Origin: Cystobasidiomycetes sp. EMM_F5
Lineage: Eukaryota
Direction of reading: 5' to 3'
Assembly: GCA_051047955.1 (NCBI GenBank)
Contig: JBPGPT010000002.1
Location: 930,001 to 994,000 of the forward strand
Length of the DNA: 64,000 bases
Shown: piece by piece, positions 25,741 to 36,846 of the stretch
Position numbering within the stretch: the first letter of the stretch is position 1
Layout: every line of letters starts with the position of its first letter
Program-made: the position numbers and the translations under genes
Notes under the pieces: generated by a model
What the model was told of the DNA's origin: nothing
What the model saw: only the letters and a program-made list of their open reading frames with translations
Database searches by the model: none

Positions 25741-26789
25741 TCAACACTTCCATCGACCCTTCTTGCGCTGCGCAATCTGTGAAGCTGTCTGCGCCGCATT
25801 GTTGCCCGAATGCCCTCCAACATTGACCGCCGCTCCACCCGGCCCATACCAGTCCGTTTCGAAATTGCAGATTGCCGCATCTTTTTCGTAGCGTTTCAAT
25901 AGGGTTGCTACGACTTCATTGGCCTTTCTTGCAATCTCTGCGGCATTATCCTCCTTCATGTCCACATCTGGGATATCGTTGCCATTTTGAGAAGCTTTGC
26001 TGGTTGCGCGGATTAAGTTTTGCAGACTAGCCTCTACGAGACGAGTCGTCTTGATGCGCGAGTCGAGCAATGCAATTCTAGCATCAGCGGAATCGATGGT
26101 CAGGTCTACCGTGTCCTTGTTGCCGCTGCCAATGGTAATGTCCTTGAGGGGTATACGCGCTGCTTTGGCTTGCGCTGCGGTAGATACAGAAGAGTAGACA
26201 AGTGTTCGCTTGTATGAGTGGGCTGGCGGTAGATCTGGCAAGTGATCCGGCACGTATGCAGCCCGTCTGGATGCTCTACTTTCGTCATCCGGGAGAAAGC
26301 GATGTGTGGGATCCTCTGTGAGTGGTCGAGTGCTGATATCTGGTTCTGCGAATGCGAGCTGTACAGATATACTGTTTTCTGCATGAAGCAGTCGAGCCAT
26401 CTCAGCTCATGGGCGTTATGGCTCAGCACATCCCAGCTAACCTGTGAGAGCGAGTCTTGCCGCATTGTTCGAGTCTACCACTTGTGCCAAGTCGTTAATA
26501 TGTATACCCTGATTCGCGCAGGCCGTAATGACCTCGACCGGGGACAGCCTTGTCTTTCGGGCCAATTCAGCGTAAGAGTTGGCGAGATGGAGTAGCCCGC
26601 CCAGGACTATGCAAAGGGACAACGTGAGCTTTGACGATGGTCGCCGTACGTGGGTTGAGGTGACCTACGCTTGAAGACCTTGTCCTCGAGCTGGACCAGC
26701 GCATCGGGAGACGCTGCGTCGTAACCAGACTGACGCAGAGTACTGCATATCATACGGCGGACGCACTCCTGCGCAAGAGCTTCATTCAT
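25741..26789 (-). CDS. TAF8: TFIID subunit Taf8
   Basis: N-terminal bromodomain-associated histone fold (GYDAASPDAL...ANSYAELARKT) plus the TAF8 C-terminal motif YVPDHLPDLPPAHSYKRT. Confidence 0.8.
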
Positions 26790-32496: not shown

Positions 32497-34587
32497 TCAT
32501 GCCCAGAGTCCTCGGAAGTAGGAGAGTGCAGCACGCTCGGCGTCACCTTTTTGTTCATGCTTGTCATGGTGACCCTCGTGATCATGGTGATGATCATGTT
32601 CATGACGACCGTGCTCGCCGTGATGTTCGTGACCATCGTGTCCGCGGTGAGCGAACGGCGGTCGGATGAGCGAGTTTACGACCTACCATTCCAAGATTAG
32701 CGTTTGCGACTTGCGCCAACGATGATCAGCGACTCACGTGTACAGCACCTCCCCAAGCTACCCCGTCGCTGATGACAGCCTTAACATACTCATGCTCGTC
32801 CTGGTATGGGTTACCAACAGCGATAGCACGTGTCTTTGGGCCTTTACCGAAACCAAGTCTGTACTCGTAGACGTGTACGCTGAGCGACTCGTTCTTCTCG
32901 GATCCGAGAAGTGTGGGAAGCTCAAACTTGTGCACATGGCCTTCAGGTCCATGAGGCTTGTCTTTGCCTGGACCCGGTCTGCCGGGTCGTCCTGGTGGAG
33001 AGGGCGGGCCGCGGTGAGGGGGGTGAGGCATTGGGAAGCCGACTCCAGAAAAGTCATCGTGCTCATCATCGTGCTGGAACCATTTAGGCAATGCCTCGAC
33101 CATGTTCTTTACACCGCTAGATACGGCACCGAAATCCACGACATCCACAGACCGCGAGGCATTGAGGTAGTAGTCGGTGTGCAGGATAGTCTGAGGGATA
33201 ATATGGTAAGACAGGACCTTCTTGAGCACGCGGTGTCCGAAAGGTCCAAGTAGGAAGAGACGAATCTTGAATGGAATCTTTGCAAATGCCAAATTGGTCG
33301 GAGCAAAGACGGTAAATGGCCAAGCTGCAAACTCCTTCTTGCGATCTTCCTCATCCATATCTTGGCGCAGAGTACTCATTCCAGCCTTTTCGAGTGCCTC
33401 GTTGATTAGCTCTTCCAGAGCACTGGTAACGGCGGGATGAGTCTGCTCGTCCTCAAGGCCGGCGATACGAGAAAGGATGCCTCCGTTATCCATGTTTTGC
33501 AGACCCTCGAAATCATCGCCATGCGATTCATGGTGATGATGATAGTAGGGAGCAATGACATGATCGAGCTCAACCTGTTGCAACGTGGAGGTCAACGCGG
33601 AGAAAGTCAACGGGAACAGGAACAGCTGATCAAGAGGTGGGAGTGGTGGCAGGAGTGGTGCGGAGATCTGGAAGAAATTGCTAGGAAATTAGCCTATTTC
33701 CGGGCCTTCGTTAGGAGCTACATACCAAATGAATGATACCATTCTTGGCAATCAAGGAAGGACCATTGCGAGCCTTTGCGTAAAAGTTCAGTGTAAGATC
33801 GTACGAGGGTGGTGGTGGAAGGAGGTCAAGCTTTGGTCGGAGACGGATCCGGAAAGGAGTGCCATACTTGCGCGTCTGATTGAGTGCAGTAGGTACCGTC
33901 TGCATATCGAGCAGTTCTCCAGCCTCGAGCTTTTCGGGTACGACGTGATACTTGAGGACGGCCGATACAATCTTCTTTATGAAACGACGCTTCTCTTCCC
34001 GAGTTGGCTCCTTGTGTTTGCCACCATCGTCGTCGCCGTCATCAGCATCCTGCTCGGCAGCTTTGAGCATGGCATGGAAAGGATGTTGACCTTGTGCATG
34101 CTCGTGTTCATGATCGTGGTGGTGGTGGTCTGGTAAATCCTTGAGTGCCTCATCATCCGGTGCAAACAGAGTGACCGAGATGTCCTCTTTGCTGAGATAC
34201 TCAATAATCTGGGGCACCGCAGTGGTATCAGCATCGCGTAGGTACGTAAGACTAGGACTGAATGCGCACCGAGTCTGAGAAGTTTGCGACTTTGGCTAGC
34301 TTCTTGAGGGGTGGAGTGCGACGATTCGGATCATCGGCGTGATGGAGAGTGTAGTTCAAGATCTGGCCGATGGTCCATCGACCTGCGAGAGGGGAGTGGG
34401 AAGATTGCTTTCAGTACAGATCAAGCGACTGAAGGGATCACTGGGTCTCACTCAGATCAATTGGCTCGTGGTTGTTTGTGACTACTTTCGTCAGCGGGTG
34501 CTGTTGTGCTCCCGGAGCCGCGATGACTGAGGCGGCGGCAGAGAGGAGCAGGGGCAGAGTCTGCGCGATGCTGGTAGTGAGCAGCAT
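32497..34587 (-). CDS. Secreted fasciclin (two FAS1 domains) with His-rich linkers and tail
   Basis: Signal peptide, VTLFAPDDEA...LKYHVVP...AKNGIIH and FTVFAPTNLAF...LSYHIIP...GAVHVV FAS1 motifs. Confidence 0.88.
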
Positions 34588-35264: not shown

Positions 35265-36846
35265 ATGCGCAACGGCCAGTTCAGTTCCATCAAGCTGTTT
35301 GCCGGGTTGGTAGCAGTGTTAAAACCCGCTTTGCCAGGCTTTGCTGATTGAAATTCGGGTCTCCCATCCAGGTCGTCGCATCCGGAGTTGGCGTATCTGG
35401 TCAGCAAGCGGCTCGGTATACCTCTGTCGGATGCGGGCACGTATCGGAAGCCATCGGGCGAGATTGGGCTGGACCTAAAGGAGAGCGTCCGTGAAGCCGA
35501 CGTCTACATCCTGAAGCAAGTTTGAAATATTGCATGATCGATGGACTGGCGAGGCTGACATGGAGCATACTACACCTGCAGTACCGCGTCCTCGGGATAT
35601 ACGCCTACTAATGGAGCGCTCATGGAGACGCTCATCATGGTTCACGCGTGCAAGATTGCCAGCGCCAGAAGGATTACCGCAGTCGTGCGTTGTCGCTTTG
35701 TGAAAGACTCACAGATGGAATGGCGACTGAGTGTGCATCATTCCATGTTGTCACGTATCCAGCTCCCACACTTTCCCTATGCTCGCCAGGACAAAAAGGA
35801 CAAGAGTAGAGCCCCCATCACTGCCAAGCTTATCGCCAACATGTTGCAAGCAGCAGGTGTGGACCACGTCATCTGCATGGACCTGCACGCTTCTCAAATT
35901 CAGGGCTTCTTTGATGTCCCGGTAGACAAGTGCGTCTTTACAAGTCGTTTGCTATACAGGGCGAAACTCTGCTAACGACCGCTTCTTACAGTGTAAGGCG
36001 CATGTATGACAGGAGAAGGGAATCCATAAACCCGCTCACATAGTCCATGCAGCTGTATGCCGAACCTACCATGGTCCAGTACCTCCGCCAGTCGATTGAC
36101 GTCGAAAATGCCGTCGTGGTCTCGCCTGATGCAGGTGGTGCAAAGCGGTGAGTCGTCTATATTACGCAGGCCGCGTTTCCGCTTACATGACGCACTTAGA
36201 GCATCCTCGCTGGCCGCCAAGCTAAATCTAGATTTCGCCTTATTTCACAAAGAACGCAAGAAGGCAAACGAAGTTTCGCGAATGGTGCTCGTCGGAAACG
36301 TACAGGGCAAGACGGCAATCTTGATAGACGACATGGCCGATACATGTGGTACGCTTGCTCTTGCCGCACAACATCTAAATGAAGCTGGTGCGACATCGGT
36401 CATTGCCCTCGTTACGCACGGTATTCTCTCCTCCAACGCTTGCGAGAAGATCACAAAGAGTAGCCTGTCTCAAGTCGTTGTCACGAATACATTACCGCAA
36501 GAAGAGCACAAGGCTCAATGCGATAAGCTCAAAGAACTCGACATCTCCAACGTACTCGCGGAAACCATCAGGAGAAGTCATTATGGCGAAAGCGTCAGCT
36601 ACTTATTCGATGCAATGCTGTGGGACCCGATCCGATTGGACTGTGAGCACATGTGCTGTCTTGAGAATGATCTTTGGCCACATACTGAGGTGCCGCATCC
36701 GGGATGCAGACGCTCAAACGGAAGAGGAAGCGCACCAGGATCAAGAGAAGTATAGATACTCCAAAGCTCCTGGAATGTCACGGCCGCCTACTAGGCCAGG
36801 GACGCCTCAACCAAAGAGACATCATCTCCCCTCAAATATTGTGTAG
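35265..36846 (+). CDS. PRS: Ribose-phosphate pyrophosphokinase (PRPP synthetase)
   Basis: [87 protein letters not shown]. Contains a GC-AG intron and an inferred 1-nt exon. Confidence 0.95.

Follow-up and report, generated by a model that had tools for sequence, protein, structure and literature searches.

A single-base exon very probably completes the asparagine codon of PVDNLYAEP in a basidiomycete PRPP synthetase gene

How does a gene keep a highly conserved motif whole when one base of its coding sequence is found at the edge of neither flanking exon? The question is raised by a gene for phosphoribosyl pyrophosphate (PRPP) synthetase in the basidiomycete Cystobasidiomycetes sp. EMM_F5. 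The gene lies on the forward strand at positions 35265 to 36846 of a 64,000-nucleotide stretch of contig JBPGPT010000002.1 (assembly GCA_051047955.1, contig positions 930,001 to 994,000). This whole stretch is the window referred to below, and all positions are given in its numbering. PRPP synthetases carry the conserved motif PVDNLYAEP, whose asparagine codon here begins at the end of one large exon and is still short of its third base when the next one starts. A preliminary description, drawn from the letters alone, proposed that the third base is an exon in its own right. The evidence assembled here makes it very probable that the gene consists of eight exons, the fifth being the single base T35992 between two complete introns.

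The arrangement can be read directly from the DNA. Exon 4 (35763..35929) ends in TTC TTT GAT GTC CCG GTA GAC AA, which translates as FFDVPVD followed by the first two bases of the asparagine codon. Exon 6 resumes with CTG TAT GCC GAA CCT at 36053. Reading stays open in frame 2 on the upstream side and in frame 1 on the downstream side, which leaves the coding sequence short by exactly one base. Intron A (35930..35991, 62 nucleotides) has the donor GTGCGT, a branch-point-like CTAAC at 35972-35976 (-20) and the acceptor TTACAG. Next stands T35992 (35992..35992), the fifth exon, which supplies the third base of Asn152 of the model. Intron B (35993..36052, 60 nucleotides) then runs directly up to CTG TAT, with the donor GTAAGG, a branch-point-like CTCAC at 36035-36039 (-18) and the acceptor ATGCAG. 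These positions agree to the base with those first described. Both flanks of the T are thus complete introns of normal length, the gene's other introns measuring 52-78 nucleotides, and among the 29 T's of the 123-nucleotide segment 35930-36052 this one alone sits between an AG and a GT.

Other ways of splicing the segment do not restore the motif. Excision of 35930-36052 as a single intron, when spliced by coordinates, produces a frameshift and a stop at codon 192, and use of the nearby TAG acceptor at 36041-36043 would leave 2+9 bases and lose the frame too; both outcomes had been anticipated. The sole single-intron alternative that stays in frame starts from a donor GTCTTT at 35934 and yields PVDKCLYAEP. 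Only when T35992 is included does the gene give an uninterrupted product with PVDNLYAEP (residues 149-157), from a coding sequence of 1131 nucleotides that encodes 376 amino acids with no internal stop. Two further routes were considered and rejected. The donors GTGCGT and GTAAGG rule out U12 or AT-AC introns, and a nested arrangement of the stwintron type, with a donor GTGTAA from 35991, leaves no AG after the excision.

RNA across the junction was sought among the contigs of four public sequencing runs, which were compared with the window at 80% likeness; no listed run contains more than 0.18 of the sampled words, and none is catalogued as RNA. As the preliminary description had predicted, one contig (run X4, record 15; 206 nucleotides, depth 2.8, no other letters and no gaps) joins 35929 to 36053 with a single letter T between them. 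It covers 36199-36285 and 36053-36146, and intron 6 is absent from it as well; in this one contig the T stands between the exon edges as expected of mature RNA. A contig from a different study (run X5, record 17; 176 nucleotides, no other letters) lacks 35516-35581, an interval with GC..AG ends, and 35685-35762. Since it is spliced at introns 2 and 3 and is identical to the window, the gene is expressed. Spliced contigs identical to the window are therefore present in two runs, and the T junction in one of them.

Other contigs from the same runs concern neighboring parts of the gene. Runs X1 and X3 contain contigs that read through introns 1-3 (35347-35497, 35572-35722 and 35621-35819) with 0-1 differences and end before the one-base exon; they represent genomic DNA, either from this organism or from one almost identical to it. 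Two apparent joints were rejected as isoforms and taken for another organism or a paralogue: 35929 to 36273 (X4 record 16), with 13 other letters in 83, and 35665 to 35764 (X1), with 20 foreign letters.

If the one-base exon is genuine, related genes should contain an acceptor, a single pyrimidine and a donor at the same place. Metagenomic assemblies were scanned for F-F-D-[V/I/M]-P-[V/I/M]-D followed by AA and GTNNGT, with any base allowed downstream as the lone base. The scan returned 108 loci in which GAYAA is directly followed by an intron, and in 101 of them two introns surround a single base. In four loci (L002, L045, L066 and L090) there is one intron only, and C or T plus TTG TAC GCC come immediately behind it; one (L033) is truncated yet still shows ACAG C GTGAGT, and two (L011 and L031) are truncated and uninformative. 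The 101 two-intron loci comprise 76 distinct sequences, in which the lone base is C in 47, T in 29 and A or G in none. AG-N-GT has thus been kept in orthologues with N held to C or T, as an asparagine codon demands. The claim that a 1-nucleotide exon is needed to rebuild PVDNLYAEP is therefore upheld on four counts, namely the model that is uninterrupted only with the T, the spliced contig that bears it, AG-Y-GT in 101 of the 108 loci, and the failure of gene predictors at exactly this spot, described below.

The surrounding introns vary freely among these 76 sequences while the signals persist. Intron A measures 45-98 nucleotides (median 57.5) and intron B 44-194 nucleotides (median 56). The total length of the segment falls almost evenly into the three classes modulo 3 (26, 25 and 25), so the segment is under no coding constraint. 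Donor B begins with GT in 74 of the 76 and with GC in two, and position +5 is G in all 76. A strict YAG-N-GTRNG with at least 40 nucleotides on each side is found in 73 of the 76, as against 0.64% of shuffled versions, in which each of the four letters turns up as the middle base. The two GC donors are AG-T-GCAAGT, in one sequence shared by L025, L028 and L029, and AG-T-GCATGC in L053; the latter is weak and is predicted from DNA only. L053 is also the nearest metagenomic relative of the window, and its best single high-scoring segment pair is 91.6% identical to a Cyphobasidiales protein.

By best single tblastn match, the nearest labelled protein to the 76 sequences belongs to Agaricomycotina in 66 cases, Pucciniomycotina in 8, Ustilaginomycotina in 2 (weak) and Ascomycota in none; such labels are approximate, since each is the nearest match among about 195 labelled proteins and only 26 lie at 80% identity or more. 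The four single-intron loci belong to Pezizomycetes, with Sphaerosporella brunnea as the best match (91%), followed by Pyronema and Ascodesmis. The one-base exon layout is very probably inherited rather than peculiar to this genome, and it recurs in loci that lie nearest to Agaricomycotina and Pucciniomycotina.

A further trace of the one-base exon is left in public gene models. The junction was tabulated in the best 120 homologues, which were divided by hand into NCBI and non-NCBI groups; a fish protein (UniRef only; canonical) was left out of both basidiomycete groups. Among the 79 NCBI-sourced proteins, 19 are canonical, 56 are aberrant at the junction, and 4 have no junction or are truncated. 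Among the 40 non-NCBI proteins (Logan, JGI, ENA and MERC), 36 are canonical, none is aberrant, and 4 have no junction or are truncated. An Ascomycota-dominated control of 119 proteins contains 112 canonical, 3 aberrant and 4 without a junction or truncated. The non-NCBI proteins are uninterrupted open reading frames in an intron-rich gene, and so are most likely derived from complementary DNA. That such an exon would be invisible to gene predictors, as had been suspected, is well illustrated by 56 of 79 NCBI basidiomycete models failing exactly at this point.

The aberrant forms include PVDKLYAEP, PVDK[YWC]LYAEP, deletion of VDN, a skipped exon and a retained intron. The 56 models divide into 18 in which K comes with an additional or altered residue, 11 that lack VDN, 9 with K in place of N, 8 with an insertion or intron retention, and 10 of other kinds. 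The K-Y, K-W and K-C forms are explained if the predictor slides the donor by four bases (GTAC|GT, GTGG|GT and GTGC|GT), which restores the frame when one base is short. Ustilaginomycotina account for 12 of the 19 canonical NCBI models. Several pairs of close relatives differ only at the junction: P0013 is 99.7% identical to the Postia placenta model P0015 (N versus K) and 99.4% identical to the Rhodonia model P0014, P0108 is 99.2% identical to the Sporobolomyces roseus model P0118 (VDN missing), and P0080 is 99.1% identical to the Fomes fomentarius model P0063 (N versus KW).

The three aberrant proteins of the control are all from Pezizomycetes (P0130, Wilcoxina mikolae; P0133, Ascobolus immersus; P0144, Kalaharituber pfeilii). 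They are models of a second PRS paralogue, with FFNVPVDKLYAEP at the junction in two and an insertion in one. A one-base exon may also be present in this second Pezizomycete paralogue, to judge from the protein models.

The aberrant NCBI models bring forward the alternative that survives best, which is that a single intron is removed from a shifted donor. Exon 4 would then extend to 35933 (GAC AAG TGC), the intron would run from GTCTTT at 35934 to the acceptor at 36052, the predicted mRNA joint would read GACAAGTGC followed by CTGTAT, and the protein would contain PVDKCLYAEP. Such a model is in frame and free of stops, and the NCBI models of Mixia (P0007) and Earliella (P0051) take this very route. 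The spliced contig nevertheless has T rather than GTGC between 35929 and 36053, and all 36 non-NCBI proteins that reach the junction read PVDN-L, with none reading PVDKC-L. In addition, GTCTTT is a poor donor, and a single intron of 119 nucleotides would be about twice the length of the gene's other introns. A shifted donor is thus very unlikely to be how this gene is spliced.

Several points do weigh against the one-base exon or the way in which it is read, and they are best considered together. The RNA at the junction is thin, consisting of one low-depth contig from one run, and the comparative evidence is the stronger. Its upstream side is 24 letters long, below the 31-letter rule for bridging, and the records do not give the type of run X4, which is taken for RNA because intron cover is missing. 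The bare motif YAGNGTRNG occurs 29 times in the 64-kb window against 28.9 expected, so by itself it is no evidence; it is the frame, together with the RNA contig and conservation, that carries the case. Two other CAG-Y-GTAAG strings, for instance, lie at 33789-33797 and 26568-26576 on the forward strand, where the frequency of the motif is that of chance. By design the metagenome scan could return only loci with an FFD-type motif and an intron immediately behind AA, and its scope excludes lineages without intron A, those with FFN or FFDC before PVD, and the second Pezizomycete paralogue. The approximate taxon labels add to these points, as does the fact that sequential removal of the introns, in either order, is a plausible inference, no splicing intermediate having turned up among the contigs of the four runs.

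Two more of these points bear on a specific alternative, namely that an assembly or sequencing indel has displaced the third base of the asparagine codon from an exon edge and that the 123 nucleotides are one ordinary intron. The X4 contig, taken alone, cannot separate a 1-nucleotide exon from an assembly in which a T was dropped at the exon edge, as it would show a T between the two sides in either event. Furthermore, no contig of the four runs lies on 35955-36048, and the assembly there is unchecked by reads. An indel does not account, however, for the two complete sets of intron signals, each half being of typical intron length. Nor does it account for the 76 distinct sequences, drawn from numerous separate metagenome assemblies, that have an internal YAG-Y-GTRNG and no base at either exon edge. 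This recurrence is taken to rule out an assembly error in the window, and an indel of any kind is left with a very slight probability.

A decaying pseudogene copy with a real break in its frame would be compatible with the stop at codon 192 that follows from a single intron. It is nonetheless scarcely credible: the 376-residue model has no interruption and matches P0001 and P0005 of relatives at 82-83.5% identity, two runs contain spliced contigs that agree with the window letter for letter, and the same 'break' is conserved across Basidiomycota. Addition of the T after transcription, by U-insertion editing or polymerase slippage once a 123-nucleotide intron has been removed, would explain a T that is present in RNA and not adjacent in DNA, and nothing further; it does not predict the needed base, always C or T, that the DNA holds between AG and GT in 101 of 105 informative loci, insertional editing is not known to occur in fungal nuclear mRNAs, and the idea is hardly tenable.

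Introns A and B are ordinary short U2-type introns, and each is complete in itself, with a donor, a branch-point-like motif and an AG acceptor. Removal of either leaves the signals of the other intact: GACAA T is followed by GTAAGG when intron A has gone, and TTACAG is followed by T CTG when intron B has gone. Fungi with short introns may recognize them as units by intron definition, in which case the size of the exon in between should not matter. Intron definition has been proposed for short-intron organisms and for Arabidopsis APC11 (PMC4674806). Since the acceptor AG of intron A shares bases with the stretch where U1 would pair with donor B (-3 to +6), excision most likely proceeds intron by intron. 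A precedent for order is the 9-nucleotide exon of potato invertase, for which the Discussion of the same paper states that the downstream intron is removed first.

A regulatory role for the one-base exon could be imagined, and a control point had been suggested at the outset. Comparison of introns A and B between the window and L053 gave no sign of one. Apart from the splice signals the introns align poorly, and no conserved intronic regulatory sequence is supported. Skipping of the base as a means to tune PRPP synthetase output is a much less likely use of this arrangement.

The distribution of the introns offers a view of how the exon may have arisen. In Pezizomycetes intron A is found alone at the same phase-2 position, while the sampled basidiomycete loci, which were selected for intron A, have both A and B. 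Probably a phase-2 intron was in place first and intron B was gained a single base 3' of it; loss of intron B in the ascomycete line is the less simple reading. On balance, though with appreciable doubt, the exon may be as old as the ancestor shared by Agaricomycotina and Pucciniomycotina at least, and possibly by all Basidiomycota, in which intron B was gained beside the phase-2 intron that Pezizomycetes retain, and the resulting exon has been kept since.

The remainder of the gene model agrees with a functional enzyme. Exon 1 (35265..35305) is homology-guided and begins with the ATG at 35265. It is followed by intron 1 (35306..35371, 66 nucleotides, GTTGGT..CAG), which is predicted from frame and homology, with no RNA joint. 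Exon 2 (35372..35515) has its 3' end set by the RNA joint 35515 to 35582 of run X5. Intron 2 (35516..35581, 66 nucleotides) is a GC-AG intron with the donor GCAAGT that is skipped in X5 record 17; a nearby GT at 35520 would break the frame if it served as the donor. Exon 3 (35582..35684) is matched by X5 record 17 with no mismatch, and intron 3 (35685..35762, 78 nucleotides, GT..AG) is removed by the joint 35684 to 35763 in the same contig. Downstream of the junction, exon 6 (36053..36147), placed by translation, is matched by X4 record 15 with no other letters. The same contig marks intron 6 (36148..36199, 52 nucleotides, GTGAGT..TTAG) by the joint 36146 to 36199 ('cut +1'). Exon 7 (36200..36642) encodes the catalytic C-terminal half, and its best homologue is 88% identical. 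Intron 7 (36643..36709, 67 nucleotides, GTGAGC..GCAG) is predicted only, because it is needed to reach the DPIRLDYAQ tail of P0001, P0004 and P0005. Exon 8 (36710..36846), taken from the spliced model, ends with the stop TAG at 36844-36846.

Judged by its domains and collinearity, the predicted product is a class I PRPP synthetase. The domains of a class I ribose-phosphate pyrophosphokinase are all present above their curated Pfam cut-offs, with PF13793 in exon 4 (E 5.2e-12) and PF14572 (E 5e-38) and PF00156 (E 2.8e-10) in exon 7, and the model is collinear with class I enzymes over its full length, including the PVDNLYAEP motif. Its identity is 82.0% to P0001 and 83.5% to P0005, which are non-NCBI proteins of relatives and most likely transcript-derived, and 55.9% to fish PRPS1 (P0006). 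Over the last large exon the nearest proteins are those of Cyphobasidiales sp. (88%) and Cystobasidium minutum (85%), both Cystobasidiomycetes, which places the window in a fungus of the Pucciniomycotina rather than in an ascomycete. A C-terminal tail of about 50 residues (DPIRLDYAQ...PPTRPGTP) is common to the Cystobasidiomycete proteins P0001, P0004 and P0005 and is absent from the 320-residue enzymes of Agaricomycetes.

The feature is a real one-base exon of a kind already known, and this widely conserved instance of it is new. What sets it apart is how widely it occurs in Basidiomycota and how much misannotation results from it. A wrong residue, insertion or deletion in a highly conserved motif of 56 of 79 NCBI-sourced models is a systematic error that spreads into databases, alignments and structure predictions. 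The 76 distinct natural sequences in turn offer many replicates on which gene predictors and RNA-seq aligners can be tested for their handling of 1-nucleotide exons. One-base exons can last over large evolutionary distances in fungi and, if the ancestral origin is true, this would be the most widely conserved 1-nucleotide exon known in them. As an expressed housekeeping gene in culturable fungi, PRPP synthetase may also serve as a natural system for asking how two spliceosomes treat splice sites that are one base apart, and in which order.

Several known systems resemble the PRPP synthetase junction in part. Ratchet points in recursive splicing are juxtaposed AG|GT sites, or 'zero-length exons', that subdivide very long introns. 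They share with the present site an acceptor directly followed by a donor and a stepwise removal; however, they leave nothing behind, whereas here the introns are about 60 nucleotides long and one base is retained. Recursive splicing is also mentioned in the Discussion of the APC11 paper (PMC4674806). Stwintrons, described in Pezizomycotina, consist of two abutting or nested U2 introns that are spliced consecutively, and introns one base apart have been linked to single-nucleotide intron shifts (PMC5587772, PMC6616335). In a stwintron a splice signal of the external intron is broken up by the internal one, and no sequence between the two survives into the mRNA. In PRPP synthetase, by contrast, the signals of both introns are intact before splicing and one base is kept in the mRNA. 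The mitochondrial cox1 gene of placozoans contains a 1-bp exon (PMC5436844), but it is organellar, unlike the nuclear and spliceosomal case considered here.

Closer parallels are found in fungal nuclear genes. The available passages of a Cryptococcus genome paper (PMC3990503) do not mention 1-nucleotide exons. A long-read annotation of Coprinopsis cinerea counted 13 1-nucleotide exons in 13 genes (Cell Genomics 2025, PMC12230235), and these are alike in being carried by a basidiomycete nuclear genome, with the added backing of full-length transcripts. The 13 genes are unnamed in the available text, three supplementary spreadsheets contain nothing on which genes carry the exons, and PRPP synthetase may or may not be included. 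No link between PRPP synthetase and a one-base exon was found in the literature, the Coprinopsis supplements that possibly list the gene being only partly covered.

A one-nucleotide exon has also been reported in CYP621A of Fusarium (Nelson & Syed 2026, PMC12940212). There too the gene is fungal and nuclear, AG-N-GT lies within an over-long 'intron', the base belongs to a conserved motif, gene predictors fail, and the evidence is of a similar type, consisting of ortholog comparison and SRA reads. In CYP621A, which encodes a seldom expressed P450 of unknown function, the exon is invariably G (AGGGT) and was shown in one ascomycete genus, whereas that of PRPP synthetase is C or T, in a housekeeping enzyme from at least two basidiomycete subphyla. 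The claim of that paper to the first fungal gene of this kind overlooks the Coprinopsis counts.

The most thoroughly studied counterparts belong to another kingdom and to other genes. Arabidopsis APC11 has a spliceosomal single-nucleotide exon (Guo & Liu 2015, PMC4674806), and 1-nucleotide exons in APC11 and VPS55 extend across land plants (Yu et al. 2022, PMC8831610). With APC11, VPS55, CYP621A and Coprinopsis as precedents in plants and fungi, the preliminary description of such exons as very rarely described is fair, provided that these cases are set beside it. The plant exons and that of PRPP synthetase are alike in being constitutive, placed between spliceosomal introns, required for the frame, missed by annotation and conserved over a large clade, and the authors of the plant studies likewise argue for intron definition and stepwise removal. 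The identity of the base has no effect on splicing in APC11, while in PRPP synthetase it is held to C or T by the asparagine codon. The plant cases have been proven by mutational, GFP or reverse transcription PCR experiments, whereas the fungal case is built on a spliced contig and on comparison across a broad set of Basidiomycota.

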